Shown here piece after piece: positions 1-21,377 of a DNA stretch of 21,528 bases. The translations under genes were made by a program, and so were the position numbers. The stretch comes from a virus. Lineage: Duplodnaviria > Heunggongvirae > Uroviricota > Caudoviricetes. Under the pieces are notes generated by a model. That model was not told the origin of the DNA and did not search any database. It worked only from the letters and a program-made list of their open reading frames with translations. How positions within the stretch are numbered: the first letter of the stretch is position 1; the number at the start of each line of letters is the position of its first letter. The DNA lies in IMG/VR virus record IMGVR_UViG_2526164668_000015, one strand, 5' to 3'.

Positions 1-202
1 TACTGATAAGTTCCAGATCCTCCTGGCAACTTGCACAAGTCCGACAACCCTGAACGACCAGGCGTCTTCGTTCATCTATGGGATCGCCACACTCACAACA
101 ATGAGTGGCGGATATAGTCTGGTAGTTCAGACGACGCATTTTTATTGCTGTATTGCGCTGTAATTCTTCAATTTCTGATGCTGAATCAATGATGTCCGCC
201 AT
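1..202 (-). CDS. DksA/TraR-family C4 zinc-finger protein (lambda Orf73-like); 3' end lies outside the window
   Basis: Minus-strand ORF starting at ATG 202..200, translating MADIIDSASEIEELQRNTAIKMRRLNYQTISATHCCECGDPIDERRRLVVQGCRTCASCQEDLELIS. It contains two CxxC pairs typical of TraR/DksA zinc ribbons. The ORF runs off the window edge. Confidence 0.6.
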   Translation of the reverse strand, partial: MADIIDSASEIEELQRNTAIKMRRLNYQTISATHCCECGDPIDERRRLVVQGCRTCASCQEDLELIS

Positions 203-429
203 CTTTCATTAATCCCTGAATTGTTGGTTAATACGCTTGAGGGTAAATGCGAATAATAAAAAAGGAGCCTGTAGCTCCCTGATGATTTTGCTTTTCATGT
301 TCACCGTTCCTTAAAAACGCCGTTTAACATGCCGATTGCCAGGCTTAAAATGAGTCGGTGTGAATCCCATCAGCGTTACCGTTTCGCGGTGCTTCTTCAG
401 TACGCTACGGCAAAATGTCATCGACGTTT

Positions 430-615
430 TTATTCCGGAAACTGCTGTCTGGCTTTTTTGATTTCAGAATTAGCCTGACGGGCAATGCTGCGAAGGGCGT
501 TTTCCTGCTGAGGTGTCACTGAACAAGCCCCATGTCGGCAAGCATAAGCACACAGAATATGAAGCCCGCTGCCAGAAAAATGCATTCAGTGGTTGTCATA
601 CCTGGTCTCTTTCAT
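430..615 (-). pseudogene. lambda orf61-like reading frame with an in-frame TGA at codon 10
   Basis: ATG at 615 gives MKETRYDNH, then TGA, then the same frame continues MHFSGSGLHILCAYACRHGACSVTPQQENALRSIARQANSEIKKARQQFPE to TAA at 430. The total of 61 codons matches lambda orf61 length and position relative to orf63. The stop is seen directly in the sequence. Confidence 0.4.
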
Positions 616-787
616 CTGCTTCTGCTTTCGCCACCATCATTTCCAGCTTTTGTGAAAGGGATGTGGCTAACGTATGAAATTCTTCGTCTGTTTCTACTGG
701 TATTGGCACAAACCTGACTCCAATTTGAGCAAGGCTATGTGCCATCTCAATACTCGTTCTTAACTCAACAGGAGATGCTTTGTGCAT
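596..787 (-). CDS. lambda Orf63-like small protein
   Basis: 63-aa ORF at the position and length of lambda orf63, downstream of exo in the pL operon. It overlaps orf60a and orf61 as in lambda. Confidence 0.65.
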   Translation of the reverse strand: MHKASPVELRTSIEMAHSLAQIGVRFVPIPVETDEEFHTLATSLSQKLEMMVAKAEADERDQV

Positions 788-942
788 ACCGCCTCCCGTT
801 TATTATTTATCTTCTCAGCCAGCCGCTGTGCTTTCAGTGGATTTCTGATAACAGAAAGGCCGGGAAATACCCAGCCTCGCTTTGTAACGGAGTAGACGAA
901 AGTGATCGCGCCTACCCGGATATTATCGTGAGGATGCGTCAT
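760..942 (-). CDS. lambda Orf60a-like small protein
   Basis: ORF immediately downstream of exo on the minus strand, 60 aa from the second in-frame Met. Position and length are as in lambda. Confidence 0.6.
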
Positions 943-1619
943 CGCCATTGCTCCCCAAATACAAAACCAATTTCAGCCAGTGCCTCGTCCATTTTTTCGA
1001 TGAACTCCGGCACCATCTCGTCAAAACTCGCCATGTACTTTTCATTCCGCTCAATCACGACATAATGCAGTCCTTCACGCTTCATACGCGGGTCATAGTT
1101 GGCAAAGTACCAGGCATCTTTTCGTGTCACCCACATGCTGTACTGCACCTGGGCCATGTAGGCCGATTTTATGGCCTCGAAACCACCGAGCCGGAATTTC
1201 ATGAAATCCCGGGAGGTAAACGGGCATTTCAGTTCAAGGCCGTTGCCGTCACTGCATAAACCATCCGGAGAGCAGGCGGTGCGCATACTTTCGTCGCGAT
1301 AGATGATCGGGGATTCAGTAACATTCACGCCGGAAGTAAACTCAAACAGGGCTCTGGCGTCGTTTTCGTACTGTTTTCCCCAGGCCAGCGCTTTAGCGTT
1401 AACTTCCGGAGCCACACCGGTGCAAACCTCAGCAAGCAGGGTGTGGAAGTAGGACATTTTCATGTCAGGCCACTTTTTTCCGGAGCGGGGTTTTGCTATT
1501 ACATTATGAACTTCTGACGCTGTGATGACACCGAGCCGTAATTTGTGCCACGCATCATCCCCCTGTTCGACAGCTCTCACGTCGATCCCGGTACGCTGCA
1601 GGATAATGTCCGGTGTCAT
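939..1619 (-). CDS. exo: lambda exonuclease (Red-alpha, 5'-3' dsDNA exonuclease)
   Basis: 226-aa translation [65 protein letters not shown]... ending ...[11 protein letters not shown] matches lambda Exo in length and sequence as recalled. Confidence 0.97.
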
Positions 1620-2403
1620 GCTGCCACCTTCTGCTCTGCGGCTTTCTGTTTCAGGAATCCAAGAGCTTTCACTGCTTCGGCCTGTGTCAGTTCTGACGAT
1701 GCGCGAATGTCGCGGCGAAATATCTGGGAACAGAGCGGCAATAAGTCGTCATCCCATGTTTTATCCAGGGCGATCAGCAGAGTGTTAATCTCCTGCATGG
1801 TTTCATCGTTTACCGGAGTGATGTCGCGTTCCGGCTGGCGTTTCTGCAGTGTATGCAGTATTTTTCGACAATGCGCTCGGCTTCATCCTTGTCATAGATA
1901 CCAGCAAATCCGAAGGCCAGACGGGCACACTGAATCATAGCTTTATGCCGTAACATCCGTTTAGGATGCGACTGCCACGGCCCCGTGATTTCTCTGCCTT
2001 CGCGGGTTTTGAATGGTTCGCGGCGGCATTCATCCATCCATTCGGTAACGCAGATCGGATGATTACGGTCCTTGCGGTAAATCCGGCATGTACAGGATTC
2101 ATTGTCCTGCTCAAAGTCCATGCCATCAAACTGCTGGTTTTCATTGATGATGCGGGACCAGCCATCAACGCCCACCACCGGAACGATGCCGTTCTGCTTA
2201 TCAGGGAAGGCGTAAATTTCTTTCGTCCACGGATTAAGGCCGTACTGGTTGGCGACGATCAACAATGCGATGAACTGCGCATCGCTGGCATCGCCTTTAA
2301 ATGCCGTCTGGCGAAGAGTGGTGATCAGTTCCTGTGGGTCGACAGAATCCATGCCGACACGTTCAGCCAGCTTCCCTGCCAGCGTTGCGAGTGCTGTACT
2401 CAT
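1616..2403 (-). pseudogene. bet: bet (Red-beta single-strand annealing protein) disrupted by frameshift
   Basis: The N-terminal 187 aa (MSTALATLAGKLAERVGMDSV...DKDEAERIVE) match lambda Bet, then the frame changes to KYCIHCRNASRNATSLR-stop. The Bet C-terminus ([18 protein letters not shown]...[11 protein letters not shown]) continues in another frame at 1616..1798. Two extra A residues relative to the lambda codons, in the runs gtcgaaaaatact and gcagaaacgcc near 1830-1860, account for the net +2 shift. Confidence 0.9.
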
Positions 2404-2408
2404 CCGTT

Positions 2409-2825
2409 TTATACCTCTGAATCAATATCAACCTGATGGTGAGCAATGGTTTCAACCATGTACCGGATGTGTTCTGCCATGCGCTCCTGAAACTCAACAT
2501 CGTCATCAAACGCACGGGTAATGGCTTTTTTGCTGGCCCCGTGGCGTTGCAAATGACCGATGCATAGCGATTCAAACAGGTGCTGGGGCAGGCCTTTTTC
2601 CATGTCGTCTGCCAGTTCTGCCTCTTTCTCTTCACGGGCTATCTGCTGGTAGTGACGCGCCCAGCTCTGAGCCTCAAGACGATCCTGAATGTAATAAGCG
2701 TTCATGGCCGAACTCCTGAAATAGCTGTGAAAATATCGCCCGCGAAATGCCGGGCTGATTAGGAAAACAGGAAAGGGGGTTAGTGAATGCTTTTGCTTGA
2801 TCTCAGTTTCAGTATTAATATCCAT
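2409..2825 (-). CDS. gam: Gam, RecBCD inhibitor
   Basis: 138-aa translation [61 protein letters not shown]... matches lambda Gam. Confidence 0.97.
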
Positions 2826-2923
2826 TTTTTATAAGCGTCGACGGCCTCACGAAACATCTTTTCATCGCCAATAAAAGTGGCGATAGTGAATTTAGTCTGG
2901 ATAGCCATAATTGTTTGATCCAT
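2780..2923 (-). CDS. kil: Kil (host killing, FtsZ-targeting) protein
   Basis: 47-codon [50 protein letters not shown], overlapping gam and cIII as in lambda. Confidence 0.85.
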
Positions 2924-3056
2924 TTTTTTGGACTCCTGGCTGATTAAGTATGTCGATAAGGCGTTTCCATCCGTCACGTAATTTACGGGTGATTCGTTCA
3001 AGTAAAGATTCGGAAGGGCAGCCAGCAACAGGCCACCCTGCAATGGCATATTGCAT
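2892..3056 (-). CDS. cIII: CIII, FtsH protease inhibitor that stabilises CII
   Basis: 54-aa translation [54 protein letters not shown] from ATG at 3056. This is below the 60-aa ORF-track cutoff and was found by hand. Confidence 0.9.
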   Translation of the reverse strand: MQYAIAGWPVAGCPSESLLERITRKLRDGWKRLIDILNQPGVQKNGSNNYGYPD

Positions 3057-3128
3057 GGTGTGCTCCTTATTTATACATAACGAAAAACGCCTCGAGTGAA
3101 GCGTAATTGGTATGCGGTAACGCCGCGC

Positions 3129-3497
3129 TCAGGCGGCCTTGATAGTCATATCATCTGAATCAAATATTCCTGATGTATCGATATCGGTAATTCTTATTCC
3201 TTCACTACCATCCATTGGAGGCCATCCTTCCTGACCATTTCCATCATTCCAGTCGAACTCACACACAACACCATATGCATTTAAGTCGCTTGAAATTGCT
3301 ATAAGCAGAGCATGTTGCGCCAGCATGATTAATACAGCATTTAATACAGAGCCGTGTTTATTGAGTCGGTATTCAGAGTCTGACCAGAAATTATTAATCT
3401 GGTGAAGTTTTTCCTCTGTCATTACGTCATGGTCGATTTCAATTTCTATTGATGCTTTCCAGTCGTAATCAATGATGTATTTTTTGATGTTTGACAT
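3129..3497 (-). CDS. ea10: Ea10 (Ssb-like early protein)
   Basis: 122-aa ORF MSNIKKYIIDYDWKASIEIEIDHDVMTEEKLHQINNFW... at the lambda ea10 position between cIII and the N-proximal region. Confidence 0.88.
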   Translation of the reverse strand: MSNIKKYIIDYDWKASIEIEIDHDVMTEEKLHQINNFWSDSEYRLNKHGSVLNAVLIMLAQHALLIAISSDLNAYGVVCEFDWNDGNGQEGWPPMDGSEGIRITDIDTSGIFDSDDMTIKAA

Positions 3498-3514
3498 CTG
3501 TTCATATCCTCACA

Positions 3515-3543
3515 GATAAAAAATCGCCCTCATCTTGGAGGGC
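3515..3543 (-). terminator. candidate intrinsic terminator (minus-strand tL-type) upstream of ea10
   Basis: On the minus strand GCCCTC-caagat-GAGGGC is followed by GATTTTTTAT: a 6-bp GC stem, 6-nt loop and U6 tract. Confidence 0.4.
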
Positions 3544-3685
3544 AAAGAAGATTTCCAATAATCAGAACAAGTCGGCTCCTGTTTAGTTACGAGCGACATT
3601 GCTCCGTGTATTCACTCGTTGGAATGAATACACAGCGCTGTGTTTATTCTGTTGTTTGCGTGAAAATGAAATCCGCCTGAGCGGG

Positions 3686-4567
3686 TTATGACCACTTTTT
3701 GTTTGGGTTTCGTTGGTGAGCGTGGTTTACAGGATTATTTGATATACCCCATAACTCTGACTCGCTTATCTCTACACGAGAGAAAGACCTGCTTTCTTTC
3801 AGTTCTTTTATAAACCTAGAACCTAAGATGACATCTATTGTACCAGAAAGTTCTTGTAAAAGATCTATGTTTTTTCTGAGGAAGAAAATATCTTCTTTAT
3901 ATTTAATTTTTACATAGAATTTATTCTGTATTTTTAATATATCAAAGCATGGCAGATATCTATATCCCTCATATTTTCGCCACTGCTTAACAATTATAAC
4001 ATCTTTTTCATTTACTGCATTAATCAGCCCAAGACCAAGTACAGGTATGAATATTCTATTGTCTGCCGAAAGCGTACAATTATCACCACCAGGCAAATAT
4101 GTATAAATCATGTCGGAATTTTTATACGCATCAACGAATGCACGTAAGAAGCGTACATATTTTTGCCATCCGTTTATACCGAATTTACCATATAAGTATT
4201 CTTTATTTGTTAGAAGAAAACTATTTGTATCAGGATCCTTATCTACAGACCTGTCGATAAGATCTCCAACTACGTTTACAAAGTCAAAGACAGAGTTTAA
4301 TAAGAACAATTGTCTTTCAGTAGGGCGAATTTCAATTATGTAGCCAGGATGAAGACGATATTGCATCTGCTTACGAAGTATACCGAACGCTTGGGTCCGA
4401 GCATCTGAAAGCAACTTCTTGTCGCCATCGCCGTGAGCATTGTTTCTAATAAAACTGATATAATTTGCTAATTTTTCAGCCTCTTTTTTGTGTTTTTTTC
4501 GCTCTGATGCTGAGTCTATTGGTTTTGGTATGGACTTGTAATCAATCTTCTTCATTACGTACCTCAT
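3686..4567 (-). CDS. hypothetical 293-aa protein, AT-rich, translationally coupled to N; function unknown
   Basis: Long minus-strand ORF whose ATG (4567..4565) overlaps the N stop codon (4566..4564) in an ATGA arrangement. It occupies the lambda ral/sieB interval between N and ea10, but the translation (MRYVMKKIDYKSIPKPIDSASERKKHKKEAEKLANYISFIRNN...) resembles neither. Base composition is visibly more AT-rich than the flanking lambda-like genes. Confidence 0.8.
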   Translation of the reverse strand: MRYVMKKIDYKSIPKPIDSASERKKHKKEAEKLANYISFIRNNAHGDGDKKLLSDARTQAFGILRKQMQYRLHPGYIIEIRPTERQLFLLNSVFDFVNVVGDLIDRSVDKDPDTNSFLLTNKEYLYGKFGINGWQKYVRFLRAFVDAYKNSDMIYTYLPGGDNCTLSADNRIFIPVLGLGLINAVNEKDVIIVKQWRKYEGYRYLPCFDILKIQNKFYVKIKYKEDIFFLRKNIDLLQELSGTIDVILGSRFIKELKESRSFSRVEISESELWGISNNPVNHAHQRNPNKKWS

Positions 4568-4887
4568 GCCAATGGAATGGATTCCCCTTTAACCTTTTGT
4601 CTTCCTTGACAAGTTATACCGAACTCACCTGGCTTGCTATACCAAACTCGATGATTCTTGCGCTCAATACGTTGCAGGTTGCTTTCAATCTGTTCGTGGT
4701 ATTCAGCCAGCACCGTAAGGTCTATCGGATTCAGTGCGCTTTCTACTCGTGATTTCGGTTTGCGATTCAGCGAGAGAATAGGGCGGTTAACTGGTTTAGC
4801 GCTTACCCCAACCAACAGGGGATTTGCTGCTTTCCATTGAGCCTGTTTCTCTGCGCGACGTTCGCGGCGGCGTGTTTGTGCATCCAT
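4564..4887 (-). CDS. N: N transcription antiterminator
   Basis: 107-aa translation from ATG 4887: MDAQTRRRERRAEKQAQWKAANPLLVGVSAKPVNRPILSLNRKPKSRVESALNPIDLTVLAEYHEQIESNLQRIERKNHRVWYSKPGEFGITCQGRQKVKGESIPLA. The N-terminal arginine-rich motif matches lambda N as recalled; the C-terminal third carries several substitutions. Confidence 0.95.
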   Translation of the reverse strand: MDAQTRRRERRAEKQAQWKAANPLLVGVSAKPVNRPILSLNRKPKSRVESALNPIDLTVLAEYHEQIESNLQRIERKNHRVWYSKPGEFGITCQGRQKVKGESIPLA

Positions 4888-5044
4888 CTGGATTCTCCTG
4901 TCAGTTAGCTTTGGTTGTGTGTGGGAGTCGTAGTCCTGAACGAAAACACCCCGCAATGGCACATTGGCAGCTAATCCGGATTCGCACTTCCGGCCAATGC
5001 TTCGTTTCGTATCACACACACCAAAGCCTTCTGCTTTGAATGCT

Positions 5045-5075
5045 GCCCTTCTTCAGGGCTTAATTTTTAAGAGCC
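5045..5075 (-). promoter_or_regulatory. nutL (boxA-like plus boxB hairpin)
   Basis: On the minus strand: GGCTCTTAAAAATTAAGCCCTGAAGAAGGGC. BoxB GCCCTGAAGAAGGGC is the exact lambda nutL boxB; the boxA-like element reads GGCTCTTA rather than the recalled lambda CGCTCTTA. Confidence 0.75.
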
Positions 5076-5120
5076 TCACCTTCAATGGTGGTCAGTGCGT
5101 CCTGCTGATGGCTTAAAATT

Positions 5121-5188
5121 ACAAGGAAGATTGTATGTTGTAAACAAGAAATATTGTAAAAAGGGGCGTGAAAAACAAACTCCATTGT
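5121..5188. promoter_or_regulatory. oL operators (434-type 14-mers) with pL
   Basis: Three 14-bp sites with ACAA...TTGT ends: ACAAGGAAGATTGT (5121-5134), ACAAGAAATATTGT (5144-5157), ACAAACTCCATTGT (5175-5188). They are of the 434 operator class and sit upstream of the N leader. Confidence 0.85.
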
Positions 5189-5238
5189 TTTTAAACGGAA
5201 AATAGTTTGTTTTTTTGTTATCGAGATTGAGGTGGGGA

Positions 5239-6591
<1,353 letters not shown>

Positions 6592-6599
6592 GACATTCC

Positions 6600-6631
6600 C
6601 GCTCTTACACATCCCAGCCCTGAAAAAGGGC
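6600..6631 (+). promoter_or_regulatory. nutR (boxA CGCTCTTAC plus boxB GCCCTGAAAAAGGGC)
   Basis: Exact lambda nutR boxA (6600-6608) and boxB hairpin (6617-6631) lie between cro and cII. Confidence 0.85.
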
Positions 6632-6710
6632 ATCAAAATAAACCACACCTATGGTGTATGCATTTATTTGCATACATTCAATCAATTGTTATCTAAGGAA
6701 ATACTTACAT

Positions 6711-7004
6711 ATGGTTCGTGCAAACAAACGCAACGAGGCTCTACGAATCGAGAGTGCGTTGCTTAACAAAATCGCAATGCTTGGAACTGAGAAGACAGCG
6801 GAAGCTGTGGGAGTTGATAAGTCGCAGATCAGCAGGTGGAAGAGGGATTGGATTCCAAAGTTCTCAATGCTGCTTGCTGTTCTTGAATGGGGTGTCGTCG
6901 ACGACGACATGGCTCGATTGGCACGACAAGTTGCTTCGATTCTCACCAATAAAAAACGCCCGGCGGCAACCGAGCGTTCTGAACAAATCCAGATGGAATT
7001 CTGA
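6711..7004 (+). CDS. cII: CII transcriptional activator
   Basis: 97-aa translation MVRANKRNEALRIESALLNKIAMLGTEKTAEAVGVDKSQISRWKRDWIPKFSMLLAVLEWGVVDDDMARLARQVASILTNKKRPAATERSEQIQMEF matches lambda CII. Confidence 0.95.
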   Translation: MVRANKRNEALRIESALLNKIAMLGTEKTAEAVGVDKSQISRWKRDWIPKFSMLLAVLEWGVVDDDMARLARQVASILTNKKRPAATERSEQIQMEF

Positions 7005-7026
7005 GGTTATTACTGGAACTATCAAC
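6950..7026 (-). ncRNA. oop: oop antisense RNA (overlaps 3' end of cII)
   Basis: Minus strand GTTGATAGTTCCAGTAATAACCTCAGAATTCCATCTGGATTTGTTCAGAACGCTCGGTTGCCGCCGGGCGTTTTTTATT matches the recalled lambda oop RNA with a few substitutions. It ends in a GC-rich hairpin plus U-tract. Confidence 0.7.
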
Positions 7027-7036
7027 AGGAGTCATT

Positions 7037-7936
7037 ATGACAAATACAGCAAAAATACTCAACTTCGGCAGAGGTAACTTTGCCGGACAGGAGCGTAATG
7101 TGGCAGATCTCGATGATGGTTACGCCAGACTATCAAATATGCTGCTTGAGGCTTATTCAGGCGCAGATCTGACCAAGCGACAGTTTAAAGTGCTGCTTGC
7201 CATTCTGCGTAAAACCTATGGGTGGAATAAACCAATGGACAGAATCACCGATTCTCAACTTAGCGAGATTACAAAGTTACCTGTCAAACGGTGCAATGAA
7301 GCCAAGTTAGAACTCGTCAGAATGAATATTATCAAGCAGCAAGGCGGCATGTTTGGACCAAATAAAAACATCTCAGAATGGTGTATCCCTCAAAACGAGG
7401 GAAAATCCCCTAAAACGAGGGATAAAACATCCCTCAAATTGGGGGATTGCTATCCCTCAAAACAGGGGAACACAAAAGACACTAATACAAAAGAAAATAG
7501 AAAAGATTATTCGTCAGAGAATTCTGGCGAATCCTCTGACCAGCCAGAAAACGACCTTTCTGTGGTGAAACCTGATGCTGCAATTCAGAGCGGCAGCAAA
7601 TGGGGGACAGCAGAAGACCTGACCGCCGCAGAGTGGATGTTTGACATGGTGAAGACTATCGCGCCATCAGCCAGAAAACCGAATTTTGCAGGGTGGGCTA
7701 ACGATATCCGCCTGATGCGTGAACGTGACGGACGTAACCACCGCGATATGTGTGTGCTGTTCCGCTGGGCCTGCCAGGACAACTTCTGGTCCGGTAATGT
7801 GCTGAGCCCGGCCAAACTCCGCGACAAGTGGACCCAGCTCGAAATCAACCGTAACAAGCAACAGGCAGTCGTGACAGCCAGCAAACCAAAACTCGACCTG
7901 ACAAACACAGACTGGATTTACGGGGTGGATTTATGA
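7037..7936 (+). CDS. O: O replication initiator
   Basis: 299-aa translation MTNTAKILNFGRGNFAGQERNVADLDDGYARLSNMLLEAYSGADLTKRQFKVLL... matches lambda O and contains the origin iterons. Confidence 0.97.
   Translation: MTNTAKILNFGRGNFAGQERNVADLDDGYARLSNMLLEAYSGADLTKRQFKVLLAILRKTYGWNKPMDRITDSQLSEITKLPVKRCNEAKLELVRMNIIKQQGGMFGPNKNISEWCIPQNEGKSPKTRDKTSLKLGDCYPSKQGNTKDTNTKENRKDYSSENSGESSDQPENDLSVVKPDAAIQSGSKWGTAEDLTAAEWMFDMVKTIAPSARKPNFAGWANDIRLMRERDGRNHRDMCVLFRWACQDNFWSGNVLSPAKLRDKWTQLEINRNKQQAVVTASKPKLDLTNTDWIYGVDL
7385..7530 (+). repeat. lambda-type origin: four ~18-bp O-binding iterons plus AT-rich unwinding region
   Basis: ATCCCTCAAAACGAGGGA, ATCCCCTAAAACGAGGGA, ATCCCTCAAATTGGGGGA and ATCCCTCAAAACAGGGGA in tandem, followed by an AT-rich stretch, all inside O. 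Confidence 0.85.
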
Positions 7937-8634
7937 AAAACATCGCCGCACAGATGGTTAACTTTGACCGTGAGCAGATGCGTCGGATCGCCAACAACAT
8001 GCCGGAACAGTACGACGAAAAGCCTCAGGTACAGCAGGTAGCGCAGATCATCAACGGTGTGTTCAGCCAGTTACTGGCAACTTTCCCGGCGAGCCTGGCT
8101 AACCGTGACCAGAACGAACTGAACGAAATCCGCCGCCAGTGGGTTCTGGCTTTCCGGGAAAACGGGATCACCACAATGGAACAGGTTAACGCAGGAATGC
8201 GCGTAGCCCGTCGGCAGAATCGACCATTTCTGCCATCACCCGGGCAGTTTGTTGCATGGTGCCGGGAAGAAGCATCCGTTATCGCCGGACTGCCAAACGT
8301 CAGCGAGCTGGTTGATATGGTTTACGAGTATTGCCGGAAGCGAGGCCTGTATCCGGATGCGGAGTCTTATCCGTGGAAATCAAACGCGCACTACTGGCTG
8401 GTTACCAACCTGTATCAGAACATGCGGGCCAATGCGCTTACTGATGCGGAATTACGGCGCAAGGCTGCCGATGAACTGTCCTGTATGACCGCACGAATTA
8501 ACCGTGGTGAGGCTATACCTGAACCAGTAAAACAACTTCCTGTCATGGGCGGTAGACCTCTAAATCGTGCACAGGCTCTGGCGAAGATCGCAGAAATCAA
8601 AGCTAAGTTTGGGCTGAAAGGAGCAAGTGTATGA
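7933..8634 (+). CDS. P: P replication protein (DnaB helicase loader)
   Basis: 233-aa translation MKNIAAQMVNFDREQMRRIANNMPEQYDEKPQVQQVAQIINGVFSQLLATFPAS... matches lambda P. The start overlaps the O stop. Confidence 0.97.
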   Translation: MKNIAAQMVNFDREQMRRIANNMPEQYDEKPQVQQVAQIINGVFSQLLATFPASLANRDQNELNEIRRQWVLAFRENGITTMEQVNAGMRVARRQNRPFLPSPGQFVAWCREEASVIAGLPNVSELVDMVYEYCRKRGLYPDAESYPWKSNAHYWLVTNLYQNMRANALTDAELRRKAADELSCMTARINRGEAIPEPVKQLPVMGGRPLNRAQALAKIAEIKAKFGLKGASV

Positions 8635-8921
8635 CGGGCAAAGAGGCAATTATTCATTACCTGGGGACGCATAATAGCTTCTGTGCGCCGGACGTTGCCG
8701 CGTTAACAGGCGCAACAGTAACCAGCATAAATCAGGCCGCGGCTAAAATGGCACGGGCAGGTCTTCTGGTTATCGAAGGTAAGGTCTGGCGAACGGTGTA
8801 TTACCGGTTCGCTACTAGGGAAGAACGGGAAGGAAAGATGAGCACGAACCTGATTTTTAAGGAGTGTCGCCAGAGTGCCGCGATGAAACGGGTATTGGCG
8901 GTATATGGAGTTAAAAGATGA
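8631..8921 (+). CDS. ren: Ren (protects against Rex exclusion)
   Basis: 96-aa ORF MTGKEAIIHYLGTHNSFCAPDVAALTGATVTSINQAAAKMARAGLLVIEGK... matches lambda Ren and is coupled to P. Confidence 0.9.
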   Translation: MTGKEAIIHYLGTHNSFCAPDVAALTGATVTSINQAAAKMARAGLLVIEGKVWRTVYYRFATREEREGKMSTNLIFKECRQSAAMKRVLAVYGVKR

Positions 8922-8994
8922 CCATCTACATCACTGAGCTAATAACAGGCCTGCTGGTAATCGCAGGCCTTTTTATTTGGGGGAGAGGGAAGTC

Positions 8995-9435
8995 ATGAAA
9001 AAACTAACCTTTGAAATTCGATCTCCAGCACATCAGCAAAACGCTATTCACGCAGTACAGCAAATCCTTCCAGACCCAACCAAACCAATCGTAGTAACCA
9101 TTCAGGAACGCAACCGCAGCTTAGACCAAAACAGGAAGCTATGGGCCTGCTTAGGTGACGTCTCTCGTCAGGTTGAATGGCATGGTCGCTGGCTGGATGC
9201 AGAAAGCTGGAAGTGTGTGTTTACCGCAGCATTAAAGCAGCAGGATGTTGTTCCTAACCTTGCCGGGAATGGCTTTGTGGTAATAGGCCAGCCAACCAGC
9301 AGGATGCGTGTAAGCGAATTTGCGGAGCTATTAGAGCTTATACAGGCATTCGGTACAGAGCGTGGCGTTAAGTGGTCAGACGAAGCGCGACTGGCTCTCG
9401 AATGGAAAGCGCGATGGGGAGATCGGGCTGCATGA
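8995..9435 (+). CDS. ninB: NinB (Orf recombination mediator)
   Basis: 146-aa ORF MKKLTFEIRSPAHQQNAIHAVQQILPDPTKPIVVTIQERNRSLDQNRKLWACLGDV... matches lambda NinB. Confidence 0.9.
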   Translation: MKKLTFEIRSPAHQQNAIHAVQQILPDPTKPIVVTIQERNRSLDQNRKLWACLGDVSRQVEWHGRWLDAESWKCVFTAALKQQDVVPNLAGNGFVVIGQPTSRMRVSEFAELLELIQAFGTERGVKWSDEARLALEWKARWGDRAA

Positions 9436-9959
9436 CTATCAAATCAAATACGCCAGCACACGACAAGGACTGCTGGCAAACGCCGCTTTGGCTTTTTGAT
9501 GCACTGGATATTGAGTTTGGATTCTGGCTGGATTCGGCAGCGAGCGACAAAAACGCTCTGTGCGCTCACTGGCTAACTGAGGCTGACGACGCGCTAAATT
9601 CTGAGTGGATAAGCCACGGTGCAATCTGGAATAACCCACCGTACAGCAATATCAGGCCGTGGGTGGAAAAAGCCGCTGAGCAGTGCATACAACAGCGACA
9701 GACGGTAGTGATGCTTGTGCCAGAGGATATGTCTGTCGGATGGTTCAGCAAGGCTCTGGAGAGTGTTGACGAAGTTCGTATTATCACTGATGGACGGATT
9801 AATTTTATCGAACCATCGACAGGGCTGGAGAAGAAGGGAAACAGCAAAGGCTCCATGCTGCTGATTTGGCGACCGTTCATTAGTCCTCGACGGATGTTTA
9901 CTATCGTATCCAAAGCGGCATTGATGGCGATCGGGCAGGGCGTCAGGAGGGCGACATGA
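9432..9959 (+). CDS. phage Dam-family DNA N6-adenine methyltransferase (orphan MTase)
   Basis: 175-aa [51 protein letters not shown]...[21 protein letters not shown]... with the (D/N)PPY catalytic motif. It is ATGA-coupled to ninB on one side and ninE on the other, in the position of lambda ninC/ninD. Confidence 0.8.
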
Positions 9960-10138
9960 GGCGACAACGACGAAGTTTCACCGACATCATCTGCGAAAAC
10001 TGCAAATACCTTCCAACGAAACGCTCCAGAAATAAACGCAAGCCAATCCCAAAAGAATCTGACGTAAAAACCTTCAACTACACGGCTCACCTGTGGGATA
10101 TCCGGTGGCTAAGACATCGTGCGAGGAATACAAGGTGA
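9956..10138 (+). CDS. ninE: NinE
   Basis: 60-aa [63 protein letters not shown], lambda NinE-like. Confidence 0.8.
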
Positions 10139-10305
10139 TTGACCCAAATCGAAGTTACGAACAAGAAAGCGTCGAGCGGGCTTTAACGTGCGCTAATTGC
10201 GGTCAGAAGCTGCATGTGCTGGAAGTTCACGTGTGTGAGCACTGCTGTGCAGAGCTGATGAGCGATTCGAATAGCTCGATGCACGAGGAAGAAGATGATG
10301 GCTAA
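10135..10305 (+). CDS. ninF: NinF (Cys-rich small protein), probable GTG start
   Basis: [56 protein letters not shown] matches lambda NinF. The GTG at 10135 overlaps the ninE stop. Confidence 0.75.
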
Positions 10306-10909
10306 ACCAGCGCGAAGACGATGTAAAAACGATGAATGTCGGGAATGGTTTCACCCTGCATTCGCTAATCAGTGGTGGTGCTCTCCAGAGTGTGGAACCA
10401 AGATAGCACTCGAACGACGAAGTAAAGAACGCGAAAAAGCGGAAAAAGCAGCAGAGAAGAAACGACGACGAGAGGAGCAGAAACAGAAAGATAAACTTAA
10501 GATTCGAAAACTCGCCTTAAAGCCCCGCAGTTACTGGATTAAACAAGCCCAACAAGCCGTAAACGCCTTCATCAGAGAAAGAGACCGCGACTTACCATGT
10601 ATCTCGTGCGGAACGCTCACGTCTGCTCAGTGGGATGCCGGACATTACCGGACAACTGCTGCGGCACCTCAACTCCGATTTGATGAACGCAATATTCACA
10701 AGCAATGCGTGGTGTGCAACCAGCACAAAAGCGGAAATCTCGTTCCGTATCGCGTCGAACTGATTAGCCGCATCGGGCAGGAAGCAGTAGACGAAATCGA
10801 ATCAAACCATAACCGCCATCGCTGGACTGTCGAAGAGTGCAAGGCGATCAAGGCAGAGTACCAACAGAAACTCAAAGACCTGCGAAACAGCAGAAGTGAG
10901 GCTGCATGA
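10295..10909 (+). CDS. ninG: NinG (Rap) recombination-associated endonuclease
   Basis: 204-aa [54 protein letters not shown]... matches lambda NinG. Confidence 0.9.
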
Positions 10910-11571
10910 ATATCTACGAAAGAATTGATGGCAGCAAATACCGAAATATTTGGGTAGCTGGCGACCTGCACGGATGCTACACGAACCTGATGAACAAACT
11001 GGATACGATTGGATTCGACACCAAAAAAGACCTGCTCATCTCGGTTGGCGATTTGGTTGATCGCGGTACAGAGAACGTCGAATGTCTGGAATTAATCACA
11101 TTCCCCTGGTTCAGAGCTGTGCGTGGAAACCATGAGCAAATGATGATTGATGGCTTATCAGAGCGTGGAAACGTTAATCACTGGCTGCTTAATGGCGGTG
11201 GCTGGTTCTTTAATCTCGATTACGACAAAGAGACTCTGGCTAAAGTTCTTGCCCATAAAGCAGAAGAACTTCCGTTAATCATCGAACTGGTGAGCAAAGA
11301 TAAAAAATATGTCATTTGCCACGCCGATTATCCTTGTGATAAATACGAGTTTGGAAAGCCAGTTGATCATCAGCAGGTAATCTGGAACCGCGAACGAATC
11401 AGCAACTCACAAGACGGGATCGTGAAAGAAATCAAAGGCGCGGACACGTTCATCTTTGGTCATACGCCAGCAGTGAAACCACTCAAATTTGCCAACCAGA
11501 TGTATATCGATACTGGCGCAGTGTTCTGCGGAAACCTCACATTGATTCAGGTACAGGGAGAAGGCGCATGA
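10906..11571 (+). CDS. ninI: NinI Ser/Thr protein phosphatase (lambda PPase)
   Basis: 221-aa ORF with calcineurin-like metallophosphatase motifs GDLHG, GDLVDRG and GNHE. It matches lambda NinI and follows ninG directly with no ninH. Confidence 0.9.
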
Positions 11572-11657
11572 GACTCGAAAGCGTAGCTAAATTTCATTCG
11601 CCAAAAAGCCCGATGATGAGCGACTCACTACTGGCCACAGTTTATTGGTTTTCGTAA
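11568..11657 (+). pseudogene. Q: truncated remnant of lambda Q antiterminator (29 codons)
   Basis: ATG overlapping the ninI stop encodes [20 protein letters not shown], identical to the lambda Q N-terminus as recalled. It then diverges (LLATVYWFS) and stops at 11655-11657. Confidence 0.7.
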
Positions 11658-11700
11658 CTGAGTCATTTTATTATTTTATTGCAACTTTTAATCTTTTATA

Positions 11701-11747
11701 GTGCGAAATAAATGGAGCTGGCATTCATTTCGCACTTTATGTTTTTG
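11701..11747. terminator. hairpin plus T-tract between convergent genes (candidate bidirectional terminator)
   Basis: GTGCGAAAT (11701-11709) pairs with ATTTCGCAC (11727-11735) as a 9-bp stem around a 17-nt loop, followed by TTTATGTTTTTG. It lies between the Q remnant (+) and the convergent outer-membrane gene (-). Confidence 0.45.
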
Positions 11748-11782
11748 TTGGACTTATGTTATTTTGATTGAATTCAATTCAG

Positions 11783-12742
11783 TTAAAAAAAGAAGGTGAT
11801 TGCTCCATTTATAAATGAATAGTCATCCCCTGTCTTGAATTCTGATGTTACTTTATTAAATGCTAGTGTGAAGGCTACAGGTGCATACCCAATTGTTGCG
11901 CCAACTTGATATTCATCAACAGTTTTGTTTAGCGATACTGTTGTTTGTTTCGTCTGTATTGTTTTTCCTTCGAGAGTATAGTTGCGATTGACATCTCGTC
12001 TTTCCATACCTGCAAAAATCTTGTATTTGAATCCGCTTGTATCGGACATATGCATTAAACCACGGGGAGCCAGCAGACCAAAGCCATTATCCGAATTGAA
12101 GGTTTTATCATTACCAATGGCAATGGTTGCGCCATATGCTACATATTGAAATAAGTTTCCAGTAACAGCAGAAACTTCAGGGTATAATCCAACATTAGCA
12201 CCTAAAATATCCATACTTGGTGTCATGGATAGCATCCCTTTTACAGTATAACCGTAGCGATTCTCTATTTGATCATCCCATGCATGATATTTTTCTGCCC
12301 CAATAATCTCATGAGCTTTATTTTGTACTTTCTGACCGCCTGCGTCGGGGCCAACAACACCTATGTCAGTACCTAATCGATAGCGAATCCAGTCATTCGC
12401 AAGGGAGTTCCATTCAATACCAGTGTGAGTGTATGCACTAAAAGCTCTGTCTCCAGTTACAGCTGTGTTGTGTCTTTTATTACTGCCTGATGGAGAGTAA
12501 ATATCTTGCGCAATATGGAGAGATAATTGGCTCGAGTCTGAGATATCGTGGCTATATCCCAGAAATAAGCCTTGTGAGTAATCATCTCTGTTTTCATGTT
12601 TATTGCCATAAATATCATTAAGTATTGGTTGAAACTTCCCTGCATCATCATTTGCTAATGATAATGCAAGGCTGTTCGCGATAGCTGAACACGTGGTAAA
12701 TGACAGAGCAATAAAGACGCCAGCGATGACACTTTTTTTCAT
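11783..12742 (-). CDS. outer-membrane beta-barrel protein; size and architecture compatible with an LpxR-type lipid A 3'-O-deacylase (unverified)
   Basis: 319-aa ORF with signal peptide MKKSVIAGVFIALSFTTCSAIA and C-terminal aromatic beta-signal ...INGAITFFF. It is AT-rich with a long AT-rich upstream region (12743-13130). The LpxR assignment rests only on length, OMP architecture and a recalled prophage-encoded LpxR in pathogenic E. coli. Confidence 0.8.
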   Translation of the reverse strand: MKKSVIAGVFIALSFTTCSAIANSLALSLANDDAGKFQPILNDIYGNKHENRDDYSQGLFLGYSHDISDSSQLSLHIAQDIYSPSGSNKRHNTAVTGDRAFSAYTHTGIEWNSLANDWIRYRLGTDIGVVGPDAGGQKVQNKAHEIIGAEKYHAWDDQIENRYGYTVKGMLSMTPSMDILGANVGLYPEVSAVTGNLFQYVAYGATIAIGNDKTFNSDNGFGLLAPRGLMHMSDTSGFKYKIFAGMERRDVNRNYTLEGKTIQTKQTTVSLNKTVDEYQVGATIGYAPVAFTLAFNKVTSEFKTGDDYSFINGAITFFF

Positions 12743-13216
12743 ATGTTATTGTCTTCCTTTTTTTTGAATGGTGCGCGTATTTTACATACATGAGTTTGTA
12801 ATACAAGGTGCGTAATCAATATGATGTTTTATAATTGCGTGAGACAATTGATTTATTCGTTTTTTATTGCGGTTTTTATTATCTTTTAATGTAACGGTGT
12901 TTTTATTAAGTGTGTTTGCGTGGTGTTTTATGTTTTTTATAATTTTTATTTTATTAAATTTAAATGCATTAGTAATGGCTATTCTATATAGCAATATAAG
13001 AACTGTTACAAAAAAAGGGGGGCAATTACAGGTAGTTATGGATGATGAGTGAAACAGATATTGGAGAACCGGGGAATGAATGATGTCTGAGTCTTATATA
13101 TCAGAACTCCTTCGCTGTCGCTGGGGGCTCCTGTGCTTATGTCGTTTCCCCGATTCGGTTTTGAACGATTACCGAATGTTGAAGAATTATGCCAAAATAT
13201 AGAAAGGATTTACTGC

Positions 13217-13906
13217 ATGAATACCCAATATTTACAGTATGTTCGTGAGCAACTTATGGCAGCTACTGCTGACTTGAACGGAGCAACGAAAGGCCAGCTC
13301 GAAGCCTGGCAGGAGCATGCACAATTTGATACTGGTACATACAAACGAAAGAAGCTGCGCATTCTGGATGTGGTAACTGGCAAGATGATTACGCTGGATA
13401 ATACGCCGACTTCCGGTAAGCAGTCGTACGCAAAAGGTTCATCCATTGCTTTGGTCAGCCCGGTTGAATTCTCAACCTCTTCATGGCGCCGCGCGGTTTT
13501 GTCTCTCGATGAACATCAGAAAGCATGGTTGCTTTGGTGTTACAGCGAAAGCGTTCGATGGGGGCATCAGGTCACCATAACGCAATGGGCATGGAGCGAG
13601 TTTAAAGATTTGTTAAGTAACAGAAAAATTGCAGGTAAGACACTGGATCGCCTGAAGACGTTAATCTGGCTGGCTGCACAGGATGTGAAGAGCGAACTTG
13701 CAGGGCGTGAGGCCTATGAATACCAGACACTGGCATCATTGGTGGGAGTGACAACAAAAAACTGGTCCGAGACATTTACTGAACGCTGGGTTGCAATGAA
13801 GCACATTTTTCTACAGCTTGATAGTGATGCTTTATTGCTTGTGACGAGAACACGTTCAAAACAAAAGGCAGCATTTTTACAGCAAAATATTGCAAAACTG
13901 GATTAA
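13217..13906 (+). CDS. putative late-gene antiterminator (Q-like, non-lambda family), 229 aa; alternative start at 13133
   Basis: ORF with an AAAGGA Shine-Dalgarno before ATG 13217. It sits where Q is expected, after the nin genes and the Q remnant, and is immediately followed by a sigma70 promoter plus short-transcript terminator. There is no recognisable similarity to lambda Q, so the assignment is by position and context only. Confidence 0.5.
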   Translation: MNTQYLQYVREQLMAATADLNGATKGQLEAWQEHAQFDTGTYKRKKLRILDVVTGKMITLDNTPTSGKQSYAKGSSIALVSPVEFSTSSWRRAVLSLDEHQKAWLLWCYSESVRWGHQVTITQWAWSEFKDLLSNRKIAGKTLDRLKTLIWLAAQDVKSELAGREAYEYQTLASLVGVTTKNWSETFTERWVAMKHIFLQLDSDALLLVTRTRSKQKAAFLQQNIAKLD

Positions 13907-13918
13907 AAGCCATATACT
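13890..13918 (+). promoter_or_regulatory. candidate late promoter (pR'-like): TTGCAA-N17-TATACT
   Basis: -35 TTGCAA (13890-13895), 17-nt spacer, -10 TATACT (13913-13918), directly downstream of the Q-like ORF stop. Confidence 0.5.
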
Positions 13919-13951
13919 TCATGCAAATTTGGTATGTTGTAAAAAATGTAT

Positions 13952-13978
13952 AAACCCGCTGCCGAGTGGGTTTTTTTT
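13952..13978 (+). terminator. intrinsic terminator (tR'-like) about 30-50 nt downstream of the candidate late promoter
   Basis: AAACCCGC-tgccga-GTGGGTTT followed by TTTTTTTT: an 8-bp stem (one G-U pair), 6-nt loop and T8 tract. Confidence 0.65.
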
Positions 13979-14247
13979 ATGCCCTGAGTTGTACTTGTAC
14001 GGTAAACATGCTGGCTGCTATGTAATAGAGTTTTTTTAGCCTGTAACCTCTTGACGGCATTGAATTGCTTTTGTTATGAGTTGTAAGCCAATGTTATCAT
14101 CTTGTATTGGGGTGGTTATGAAGGATGGTGCGCTGCTCAGGAGTTCTTCACTTTTTATTGCCTACATGGGATGCCTTGGATGGGGGAGTGCTTATTTCTA
14201 TGGATGGGGTACTTCTTTTTACTACGGCTTCCCATGGTGGATTGTAG

Positions 14248-14595
14248 GTGCAGGTGTTGATGATGTTGCCAGAAGTTTATTTTTTTGCAGTTATCGTCAT
14301 TGCTATATTTCTTATCGGTTGGGGTATTGGTGTTGTATTCTTTTTCGCAGTGAAAAGAAAACATTCTATGCAAGAGCTAAATGTATTTCGCCTTTATTTT
14401 GCTGTGGAATTATTGTTTGTGCCGGCAATTATTGAGTTTTCTATATTGAGACAGAAGATTCAGGTACCTCTTTTGCTACTGTCAGCAGCGATTGCGCTGG
14501 CGGTTACAATTTCGATAAGATCTTATGGGCGATTTTTATCGGTATCATGCTTCTATGATAAGCCATTTATAAAAAACATTTTTTTGAGATTGTGA
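14248..14595 (+). CDS. small integral membrane protein (about 3 TM helices), AT-rich cargo gene
   Basis: Translation ...LPEVYFFAVIVIAIFLIGWGIGVVFFFAVKRKHSMQELNVFRLYFAVELLFVPAIIEFSILRQKIQVPLLLLSAAIALAVTISI... has three hydrophobic segments. The start is ambiguous (GTG 14248, ATG 14260 or 14263). An overlapping upstream ORF (14076-14435) may be its frameshifted N-terminus. Confidence 0.5.
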   Translation: MQVLMMLPEVYFFAVIVIAIFLIGWGIGVVFFFAVKRKHSMQELNVFRLYFAVELLFVPAIIEFSILRQKIQVPLLLLSAAIALAVTISIRSYGRFLSVSCFYDKPFIKNIFLRL

Positions 14596-14834
14596 TGATT
14601 GCTTTTGTGGCATATTTTTGGCTTTTTTCATTTCTGACAGGATATTACAAACCACAGTTTAAGAAAGAATATGAAATGATTAATTATAATGATGGTTGGT
14701 ATTATGTTCTTGCTCGTTATGATAATTGTCTGGTTTTGTCTACTTCTTTCAATGCAGGTAGTAAAAGGTTTGTCATTTATCAATCAGCACAAGATAAGAA
14801 TCTTCAGGTTGATATTGTAAGGACCAGAATTTAA
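14592..14834 (+). CDS. small protein with N-terminal TM helix, coupled to the preceding membrane protein
   Basis: MMIAFVAYFWLFSFLTGYYKPQFKKEYEMINYNDGWYYVLARYDNCLVLSTSFNAGSKRFVIYQSAQDKNLQVDIVRTRI. The ATG overlaps the upstream TGA stop (ATGA). Confidence 0.5.
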   Translation: MMIAFVAYFWLFSFLTGYYKPQFKKEYEMINYNDGWYYVLARYDNCLVLSTSFNAGSKRFVIYQSAQDKNLQVDIVRTRI

Positions 14835-15124
14835 TTGGCTGCATAAATAATATTTTAAGTTGCAAGTTGGCTATTCGTAGGAATAGAACCTTAGGCATGC
14901 TGAATGCGTTTTCTGAACATTGTTTTATAAACTGTGTCTGCTTGCTGTTGTGATCCTGCTTTTAGTGATGGTGATGATGGATTTCACCAGCAGGATAATG
15001 TTGGTACTGACTGATGGCGCTCTGGTCTGCGGCATTGTGGTATTGCTGTGGCCGATGATGAAAGAACAGGTGATGCTGCCAACTTACTGATTTAGTGTAT
15101 GATGGTGTTTTTTGAGGTGCTCCA

Positions 15125-15400
15125 GTGGCTTCTGTTTCTATCAGCTGTCCCTCCTGTTCAGCTACTGACGGGGTGGTGCGTAACGGCAAAAGCACCGCCG
15201 GACATCAGCGCTATCTCTGCTCTCACTGCCGTAAAACATGGCAACTGCAGTTCACTTACACCGCTTCTCAACCCGGTACGCACCAGAAAATCATTGATAT
15301 GGCCATGAATGGCGTTGGATGCCGGGCAACTGCCCGCATTATGGGCGTTGGCCTCAACACGATTTTACGTCACTTAAAAAACTCAGGCCGCAGTCGGTAA
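15125..15400 (+). CDS. insA: IS1 InsA
   Basis: 91-aa translation [91 protein letters not shown]. Confidence 0.95.
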
Positions 15401-15822
15401 CCTCGCGCATACAGCCGGGCAGTGACGTCATCGTCTGCGCGGAAATGGACGAACAGTGGGGCTATGTCGGGGCTAAATCGCGCCAGCGCTGGCTGTTTTA
15501 CGCGTATGACAGTCTCCGGAAGACGGTTGTTGCGCACGTATTCGGTGAACGCACTATGGCGACGCTGGGGCGTCTTATGAGCCTGCTGTCACCCTTTGAC
15601 GTGGTGATATGGATGACGGATGGCTGGCCGCTGTATGAATCCCGCCTGAAGGGAAAGCTGCACGTAATCAGCAAGCGATATACGCAGCGAATTGAGCGGC
15701 ATAACCTGAATCTGAGGCAGCACCTGGCACGGCTGGGACGGAAGTCGCTGTCGTTCTCAAAATCGGTGGAGCTGCATGACAAAGTCATCGGGCATTATCT
15801 GAACATAAAACACTATCAATAA
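15319..15822 (+). CDS. insB: IS1 InsB (transposase produced as InsAB' by frameshift)
   Basis: 167-aa ORF ...[72 protein letters not shown] overlapping insA in the -1 frame. Confidence 0.95.
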
Positions 15823-16581
15823 GTTGGAGTCATTACCAGTACCTTGTAGCCTTTATTTGCAGGATATAAAGGTAAAAACTCGGTTAATAATGGGTCAGGA
15901 CCTTTAATAGTTGTAAACTTGAACAAAATGACGTTAATATTATTAACGTAGATGATATTATCAGAACAACCTTCTTGCCATCCATTTTATCGCATTCAAA
16001 CATTATAAATGTACTTAGTATTATTCATAAATGATATCAAGATGGCACCTTAACCTTCACCCAAACGACGTTAACCAAATAAAAGAAAGTTAAGATGCCA
16101 TCGAAATATCATTAATTGCTGCATATCCTTTATCATACAATAACAAATGTTCTCCTTATTGTTTTTTTGTGCATCCCTGCTTTTAATATTTACATGCAAT
16201 GGAAAAACAGTATATGGAGAGAACTTTTCCGCAAAACATTTTCATATCCTACGCTCCTGAAATATAACAGATCCACTCAGACATAAATCGCAAAAAATTC
16301 AAGGTTAACGTAAAATGTAAAAAACTTAGCGTAACTAATATTGGTTTACCTTCGTTACTGTAAATACGCCAACATAGCATAGATAATCAATGAGGTATAG
16401 TCTGTTTATGAGAATTAATTTATAAAAACAAGTGAATAACAATGGAGAATTAATCCTTGCAGCTTATGAGTTTGTGAAGCAATTGGGAAAGAAAAATATA
16501 AATGATGTGAAAAAAAATAATTATTCGTCTTACCAATGCACTCGAGACTACTGATCCTACCCACGTAATGTGGACACGGCC

Positions 16582-17435
16582 CTAAGCGAGATTATGGTTT
16601 TCAAATTGTTCCGGGCTGAGACCGCCACAGGCACTGTGACGACGCCAGCGATTGTAATCACACTCGATATAATTAAACACCGTTGCCCGCATTATTTCCC
16701 GGCTGCTAAAGCGTTCCCCGTGGATACATTCCACCTTCAGCGAATGAAAGAAGCTTTCCACACAGGCATTGTATAACAGTAGCCTTTCGCACTCATACTG
16801 CCACGCAGGTTGTGTCGCTTCAGCAGCGCCTGATAATCCCCTGAACAGTATTGACCACCACGGTCCGTATGAACAATGACGCTTTCCGGGCGTCTTCTCC
16901 GCCACAACGCCATTTGCAGTGCATCACAGGCCAGTTGTGCTGTCATTCGCGGTGACATCGACCAGCCAATAACGGCGCGTGACCACAGGTCGATGACTAC
17001 TGCGAGATACAACCAGCCCTCATCGGTACGCAAGTACGTGATGTCACCCGCCCACTTCTGGTTCGGGCCGCTGGCGCTGAAGTCCTGCTCCAGCAGATTC
17101 TCCAATACGGGCAGGCCATGTGCACGGTAGCTGACCGGGCTGAACTTCCGGCTGGCTTTCGCCCGCAGCCCCTGACGACGCAGGCTGGCGGCAATGGTTT
17201 TAATATTGAACTCCGGCAGTTCGTCAGCAAGGCGGGGAGCACCGTATCGCTGCTTTGCCTCAAAGAATGCCTTATGGACAGCGGCATCGCAGGTGAGCCG
17301 AAACTGTTGGCGCAGGCTCATCTGGTGACGACGCCTGAGCCAGACATACCAGCCGCTGCGGGCAACCCGAAGTACACGACACATCGCTTTGATGCTGAAC
17401 TCTGCCCGATGATTTTCGATGAAGACATACTTCAT
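16582..17435 (-). pseudogene. IS3-family transposase OrfB (InsF-like DDE) with an internal frameshift
   Basis: InsF-like sequence [30 protein letters not shown]...[30 protein letters not shown] runs to about 16775 and then stops ([14 protein letters not shown]-stop). The InsF C-terminus ([19 protein letters not shown]...[14 protein letters not shown]) continues in another frame at 16582-16773. This is consistent with a 1-nt deletion near TGTTATACAATGCC, where IS3 as recalled has TGTTATGACAATGCC. Confidence 0.8.
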
Positions 17436-17731
17436 TTCAGGCGCTTCGCGAAGTATGTCGCGGCCTTTTGGAGGATGGCCAGTTCCTCAGCCTGCTCCGC
17501 CAGTTGTCGTTTAAGGCGGACATTTTCAGCGGCCAGTTCGCTTTCGCGCTCTGACGAACTCATTTGTTGCTGCTGTTTACTGCGCCAGGCATAAAGCTGG
17601 GATTCATACAGGCTGAGTTCACGGGCTGCGGCGGCCACACCGATGCGTTCAGCGAGTTTCAGGGCTTCGTTACGAAATTCAGGCGTATGTTGTTTACGGG
17701 GCTTCTTGCTGATTGATACTGGTTTTGTCAT
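17432..17731 (-). CDS. IS3-family transposase OrfA (InsE-like, HTH)
   Basis: 99-aa [102 protein letters not shown]. Confidence 0.9.
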
Positions 17732-18049
17732 GAGTCACCTCTGGTTGAGAGTTTACTCACTTAGTCCTGTGTCCACTATTGGTGGGTAAGATCATAAATA
17801 CCCATTCAATACGCTGTATGGCCGCTGAAAGAACATTTTCTTCCGCTATGACTTTTTGTGTACCTCTCATACATAGCCCTGATAAAGCATTCTGATTTAA
17901 CTTTCTGTCAAATACGAGGCAACCAGTCCGTAATCAACCACACAACAAACCAGAACCCCATCATCAGAATCAAATACTCCATGATGACTGAAATACTTAT
18001 TTTCATATCATTACCGCACCCTGATAATATTCAGTACAGAATTATCCCA

Positions 18050-18847
18050 TTACTGATACTCAATACTCACTGGCAGGGACACATTCCAGCGTTCTGTTTT
18101 ATCTCCCCACAGATGTAATTCGCCGGTGTCAGCAATAGTCCGGGCACCATAAACACCTTCAATCTGGCGAAGAGCAGTATCGCTGAAATGGCTTACGCCT
18201 GTCTCTGAACTTACTGACATCGTCGGCAACCACCCCGGACCTTCACCATCAAACATTGACTGCAGTAATCCGGGAATCTGCTCTGTGTTCAGAACATGGG
18301 ACTTATCAGGCAGACCGTTTCCCCCTACATCATCATATATACTGGTATAAGTAACCTGACCGTTACTTACATGCCGCATAAGTCCTGCCGCCTGCATACG
18401 AAACGTAAAATGACCAATCCGATGGCTATCTTCCCCCGTAACAGGCAATGTAACATCTGCAACTCCTGGTGTGGCCCACACCAGAGAAAAATCCTCAATA
18501 CCTTTTCCGAATATAATTCGGGGAGCCAGCCCCTCACGTCCGGCAGGTGTGGTAAGAACTGTTTTTCCCAGTACAAGATTCATGGCAGGCAAAGAAACAG
18601 GAACCACCGTATCTCCACTACGTGAAACCGGAGAATGTTTGACATTCAGGTTTGACTTCCCTTCTCCTATCTTCCACACCCAGGGATTACGGGTACTGGT
18701 TACTGGACCGCCCAGTTTAAGTTCACCACTGAAATCCTGACCGGGTGTATTCCAGGCCAGAACACTGAATGGAAAAAAACAAACAATCAGAAATAACAAA
18801 ACAGAATTCTTCACATTTTTCTCCACTATTGTTTCCCTGCCATTCAT
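18050..18847 (-). CDS. secreted protein, paralog C of a three-member family (pilus/adhesin-like?)
   Basis: ATG at 18847 overlaps the stop of the upstream gene (ATGA). Signal peptide [31 protein letters not shown], motif [12 protein letters not shown] shared with the upstream paralogs, and a C-terminal beta-strand ...[11 protein letters not shown]. Confidence 0.7.
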
Positions 18848-19620: not shown

Positions 19621-19686
19621 CGAACTAAATTCATGCTATTTACTCCTCATCCTTTAAAACAGAAGTCGGATGTATCGTTTTTGGAA

Positions 19687-19719: not shown

Positions 19720-19758
19720 CAAATAATAAATGGTTTCTACTTATTTAAGTTCTGTGCA

Positions 19759-21335: not shown

Positions 21336-21377
21336 TTAACTCCCCTTCTGTTCTGTACTCCGGTACGGCGGGATTGA

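Follow-up and report, generated by a model that had tools for sequence, protein, structure and literature searches.

The bet gene of a lambdoid prophage in Escherichia coli DEC11A has been deposited with two one-base insertions that divide its reading frame, while the neighbouring exo and gam genes are complete. Has the Red recombination module of this prophage been inactivated, or is the sequence in error? The stretch of DNA analysed here (the window) is the whole of contig AIGV01000021.1, 21,528 nt in length, from the E. coli DEC11A draft whole-genome shotgun assembly GCA_000250115.2. A preliminary description of this DNA offered both answers, inactivation of Red or homopolymer sequencing errors, and our comparisons point to the latter, in that the insertions are private to the contig, they form part of a contig-wide and clustered set of similar changes, and bet carries no other sign of decay.

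The bet gene as deposited

When aligned with the bet genes of lambda (NC_001416) and E. coli A1, the bet gene of the window differs in length at only two sites, each with an extra A (the extended A5 and A3 runs lie at gene positions 539-543 and 561-563; Table 1). The preliminary description had correctly reported one additional A in each of two A-runs; the distance between the runs is 22 nt rather than the approximately 25 nt that it gave, and the frame change that it placed after residue 187 is the second of two. The first shift occurs after codon 180 (E180, with N181 changed to K), residues 181-187 (NTAYTAE) can be read in the second frame, and the authentic C-terminus continues, as had been described, in another frame, the third. 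The product of the initial frame (frame 0) is 197 amino acids (aa) in length, comprising 180 authentic Bet residues followed by 17 out-of-frame residues.

Removal of the two A's restores a gene that is identical to that of strain A1 at 786/786 nucleotides, with no substitutions, and that encodes a protein identical to lambda Bet at 261/261 residues. All 16 nucleotide differences between the repaired gene and lambda bet are synonymous, which indicates strong purifying selection on Bet in this lineage. Repaired Bet is 100% identical to its lambda counterpart and Exo and Gam each depart from theirs by a few residues (Table 1), suggesting that the constraint on Bet is unusually strong.

The RecT annealing domain is present in the deposited sequence (PF03837, residues 24-180, E=2e-33), and residues 1-178 match PDB 7UJL (E=2e-122). 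Solved structures of Bet cover the N-terminal annealing domain (1-178, 7UJL) and the C-terminal domain (182-261, 8TFU; 194-260, 6M9K), and the first shift, after residue 180, falls in the linker between them. In-frame fusion of the C-terminal domain (residues ~182-261) to the annealing domain is absent from the sequence as deposited and is restored by deletion of both A's.

Table 1. Positions of the bet insertions, the Red genes and the other one-base changes discussed in the text (window coordinates)
Feature	Position	Strand	Description
bet (lambda Red-beta, RecT family)	1616-2403	minus	788 nt as deposited; 786 nt in lambda and relatives
First extra A	1861-1865	minus	A5; A4 in lambda and seven relatives (GAAAAT to GAAAAAT)
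Second extra A	1841-1843	minus	A3; A2 in lambda and seven relatives (CAGAAC to CAGAAAC)
Bet residues 188-261 and stop codon	1616-1840	minus	third frame; C-terminal domain binding Exo/SSB
Premature TAA of bet frame 0	1812-1810	minus	ends the 197-aa product
exo (lambda exonuclease, YqaJ family)	939-1619	minus	intact, 226 aa; 4 aa differences from lambda
gam	2409-2825	minus	intact, 138-aa ORF (98 aa annotated in relatives); 3 aa differences from lambda
71-aa hypothetical (WP_000188870 in relatives)	301-519	minus	private +1 at 347, 412 and 433
247-aa hypothetical (WP_001302581 in relatives)	14091-14834	plus	private +T at 14280 (T6 to T7); -A at 14570
Intergenic G7 to G6	13016		shared with strain Trh52
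T6 run in IS1 end	15103-15108		T5 in the C7 plasmid copy and in at least 120 viral-contig copies
Loss of one base from an A run (vs. C7 plasmid A)	19602		intergenic, upstream of faeH

The Red module and its surroundings

Both exo and gam are full-length, as previously noted, and Pfam identifies RecT in the bet product, YqaJ in the exo product, and Gam in the gam product. The gam-bet-exo synteny is present, and the start codon of exo overlaps the stop codon of bet (ATGA, within GCATGA at 1616-1619). The left 15 kb of the window corresponds to the early region of a lambdoid prophage: exo, bet, gam, kil/cIII, and a DUF2528 gene are encoded on the minus strand, and these are followed by N, a cI-like repressor gene, cro/cII, O, P, ren, nin genes, an LpxR gene, and Q.

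Two genes in this region are observations apart from the question of bet. A gene encoding 289-293 aa (3686-4567, minus strand) lies between N and the DUF2528 gene and is kept in all relatives. It is AT-rich (34.7% GC, against 45% for the prophage), and neither it nor a gene for a 103-aa protein has a match in Pfam or PADLOC. Exclusion and accessory genes occupy this position in lambda. The gene is a candidate for an accessory or superinfection-exclusion function. An LpxR-family lipid A deacylase is encoded between the nin region and Q (11783-12742, minus strand); its gene adjoins what is left of an antitermination gene, which is annotated as partial in the relatives, and appears to be host-modifying cargo within the prophage.

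Indel spectrum relative to related prophages

Many complete E. coli genomes carry the prophage portion of the window used for comparison (1-15069), with identities of 99.5-99.9%, and seven of them, mutually independent, were aligned (A1, OkiPb01675, JB2, 12A, Trh52, C7, and UTAK-6). The preliminary description had proposed a comparison with the same prophage in other isolates; both bet insertions are missing from 7/7 of these relatives. Relative to A1, the nearest of them, the 15,069 nt segment has two substitutions and eight single-base indels, all of the latter in homopolymers. Six indels are private to the window (at 347, 412, 433, 1841, 1861, and 14280), and every one of them is a +1 change that lengthens an A/T run. 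There is a single private substitution, a synonymous transition in exo. The two other indels, at 13016 and 14570, are each found in one relative (the latter, A7 to A6, in strain 12A) and may be true polymorphisms.

This private spectrum is a gross outlier, since six indels to one substitution in the window compare with seven small indels to 96 substitution columns among the seven relatives (Fisher p of approximately 5e-6; binomial 6e-7). Each relative has only 0-2 private single-base indels, and any two relatives are 1-71 substitutions and 0-4 small indels apart. By contrast, the window differs from every comparator by 6-10 small indels, even from those that are just one or two substitutions away.

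The placement of the private insertions is also unusual. In the reference sequences, the runs in which they occur are 3, 3, 1, 2, 4, and 6 nt in length, while the region has 32 A/T runs of at least 6 nt; this choice of short runs over long ones is unlike replication slippage, which is expected to favour the long. The insertions at 347, 412, and 433 fall within 87 nt and those at 1841 and 1861 within 20 nt, and three adjacent gaps of 100 nt or less have a probability of about 3e-4 under uniform placement. Five of the six lie no more than 1,861 nt from the left contig end, for which the probability under uniform placement is likewise about 3e-4. Such clustering would be expected of a stretch that is locally thin or of low quality.

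Other genes and segments with one-base indels

Thirty genes are annotated in the corresponding region of A1, and 25 of these are intact in the window, with identical proteins. Two of the remaining five are cut (one by the contig end and one by the IS1 junction), and three are broken by indels: bet with its two insertions, a 71-aa hypothetical gene with three insertions, and a 247-aa hypothetical gene with one insertion and one deletion. Counting those in the two hypothetical genes, eight one-base homopolymer indel sites are found in the window outside of bet, and the complete 21.5 kb has ten homopolymer indels and two substitutions (~0.46 indels/kb).

The run changes in the 71-aa gene are A3 to A4, A3 to A4, and T1 to T2. 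Their net effect is +3 within 87 nt, such that the frame is regained after ~29 scrambled codons; this gene is labelled ZapA-like in some records, and it carries the same error signature as bet. The 247-aa gene, which is located downstream of Q, contains the T6 and A7 runs. In the independent complete genomes of JB2, 12A, OkiPb01675, and C7 its annotation records a frameshift, an observation that counts against a sequencing error in bet; the gene is either genuinely length-variable or subject to a recurrent long-read homopolymer error. A comparable case is found in the complete genome of UTAK-6, where the annotated frameshift is in exo instead of bet and the exo gene has one extra base (retrieved locus 1436-2117), so that isolated one-base frameshifts of the Red module in other assemblies merit equal scepticism.

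Positions 15070-21528, on the right of the contig, are plasmid-like DNA unrelated to the prophage, with IS1, ISEc16, and F4-like fimbrial genes. Compared with its closest match, plasmid A of strain C7, this segment has no substitutions and two homopolymer indels (Table 1). The T6 form of the run at the IS1 end has no match among viral contigs and two among metagenome contigs, and is thus rare, although not unique. At the junction (15069/15070), the chromosomal lambdoid prophage is joined directly to IS1, cutting off the last codons of a DUF3927 gene. The F4(K88)-like fimbrial genes and ISEc16 beyond IS1 are located on plasmids in strains C3, C7, and OkiPb01716, and in the C7 chromosome the prophage runs on past the junction point without an IS1. 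The contig may be a chimeric join over a collapsed IS1 repeat or may reflect an IS1 insertion or rearrangement specific to DEC11A.

Occurrence of the interrupted allele

An exact look-up of the 197-aa product returned a single contig, AIGV01000021.1 (protein record EHW96933.1), and the products of the other aberrant open reading frames (ORFs) are on record either for DEC11A only or nowhere. The double-insertion bet string has no exact match in the collections of genome, viral, and metagenome contigs, nor do the single-insertion strings have any match in these collections. The wild-type string, used as a positive control, was found in 42 viral contigs, which indicates that the string search works. 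Among complete E. coli genomes, 3,250 carry bet, and in all of the best 60 of these the gene spans 786 nt. Two further observations count against a sequencing error: truncated Bet products are present on many contigs of the protein collection, and the bet insertions persist in version 2 of the DEC11A assembly.

Origin of the insertions

The two insertions are present in the deposit, are private to it, and form part of a clustered, insertion-biased excess of indels in A/T runs. Throughout the contig the indels are confined to homopolymers and far exceed substitutions (8 vs. 2 in 15 kb of prophage; 2 vs. 0 in the remaining 6.5 kb), the private ones belong to this single assembly, and the changes are spread over three genes, the IS1 end, and intergenic positions, with local clustering. 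These features, together with the lack of any other decay in bet, favour error, and we consider it highly probable (approximately 0.85) that the two extra A's are homopolymer base-calling or consensus errors in the 2012-era DEC11A draft. From the spectrum of changes, we infer that the excess of indels was born in sequencing or assembly and not in the cell. The errors would be one-base over-calls of A/T runs gathered near a contig end, where the consensus would be weakest. DEC11A itself would then possess a normal 261-codon bet gene whose product matches lambda Bet exactly, within a gam-bet-exo module that is otherwise pristine. The earlier statement of a broken bet beside intact exo and gam holds for the deposited sequence and is probably wrong for the organism; judged from these sequence comparisons, the frameshift is most likely not a real biological feature.

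The contrary reading is that DEC11A truly gained two +1 insertions, perhaps as a slippage-prone or mismatch-repair-defective lineage, leaving a strain-specific bet pseudogene from which the cell would make only the annealing domain (Bet 1-180), lacking the Exo- and SSB-binding C-terminal domain. We regard this as unlikely, even though both insertions are there in the deposited sequence. Inactivation of prophage genes is common, and the relatives have frameshifted genes of their own, but this lesion is not inherited: it is missing from the seven closest relatives and from the best 60 of the 3,250 bet-carrying genomes, and both the allele and its single-step intermediates are missing from the genome, viral, and metagenome collections searched. 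The sole private substitution, being a transition, would fit a mutator lineage; such an origin is nevertheless disfavoured, as indels outnumber substitutions 6:1, the reverse of the natural 7:96 in the same region, and occur in short runs despite the many long ones, tightly clustered by the contig end. A shift in the inter-domain linker makes a stable truncated product conceivable, yet the relaxed constraint to be expected of a pseudogene is not seen, with no accompanying substitution in the 786 nt shared with A1. A real lesion would also leave bet and 25 other genes without any amino acid change, and the same signature is found in the unrelated IS1 and plasmid-like segment.

A full-length Bet might instead be obtained by recoding, if the ribosome made two programmed +1 frameshifts or if transcription slipped at the A runs. 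Both changes do lie in A runs, which is the extent of the support for this idea. Two independent +1 events would be required 22 nt apart, neither site has the slow or stop codon of prfB-type +1 shifting, and runs of A5 and A3 are far shorter than those known to give RNA polymerase slippage. Nor is the site conserved: bet is read in a single frame in the seven relatives and lambda, and in the best 60 of 3,250 genomes its length is constant and its annotation is that of an ordinary gene. Given an unconserved site, short runs, and the need for two events, recoding is not credible.

If the insertions were real, published work already predicts what would follow, and the effect would be modest. C-terminally truncated Red-beta can anneal DNA but is inactive in recombination in vivo (PMC5052646). 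Lambda Exo and the host SSB are binding partners of the C-terminal domain (PMC6393309); with this domain missing, Red recombination would be lost. Translation of exo would presumably also be uncoupled from that of bet, as the premature stop lies ~190 nt upstream of the bet-stop/exo-start overlap. It is very improbable that DEC11A has a split Red-beta, consisting of the annealing domain (1-180) with its 17-aa tail and possibly a separate C-terminal fragment (60 aa from M202, ORF 1616-1798), but if it did, the prophage would be a natural experiment on the role of a lone annealing domain.

The main value of this locus is as a lesson in data quality, in that bet, which appeared to be selectively inactivated, is one of several genes with the same one-base homopolymer insertions in a single draft contig. 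Apparent pseudogenes in draft assemblies could be screened routinely by the ratio of indels to substitutions relative to the nearest independent genomes, the comparison that exposed the pattern here.

Comparison with known systems

Errors in homopolymer length, seen as indels in draft assemblies, are well known from flow-based and single-molecule sequencing. The indels of the window resemble those of error-containing drafts in being single-base, biased toward insertions and A/T, private, clustered, spread over multiple genes, and far more numerous than substitutions. They differ from pure homopolymer miscalls in that several of the affected runs are only 1-3 nt in length, which is more typical of a low-coverage consensus.

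In decayed cryptic lambdoid recombination modules, as in the window, a prophage recombination gene has an interrupted frame. Where decay is real, related strains would be expected to inherit it, and substitutions and larger deletions to accompany it. In contrast, the lesion in the window is private, and 25/30 proteins are identical to those of its closest relative.

The deposited product is also similar to Red-beta truncations constructed in the laboratory (e.g. 1-177; PDB 7UJL; PMC9512822, PMC5052646), since its authentic portion (1-180) approximates the annealing domain. Those proteins were engineered, whereas the version in the window ends in 17 out-of-frame residues and is unlikely to be a real protein.

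Among the closest known systems is lambda itself. The window and lambda are alike in the RecT domain of Bet, the gam-bet-exo gene order, the 4-nt overlap between bet and exo, and the identity of the repaired protein, and in relative A1 the prophage adjoins ybhC, the lambda attachment region. The bet gene of the window is unlike that of lambda in its 16 synonymous differences and in a reading frame that the deposited sequence breaks at codons 180 and 187, giving three pieces.
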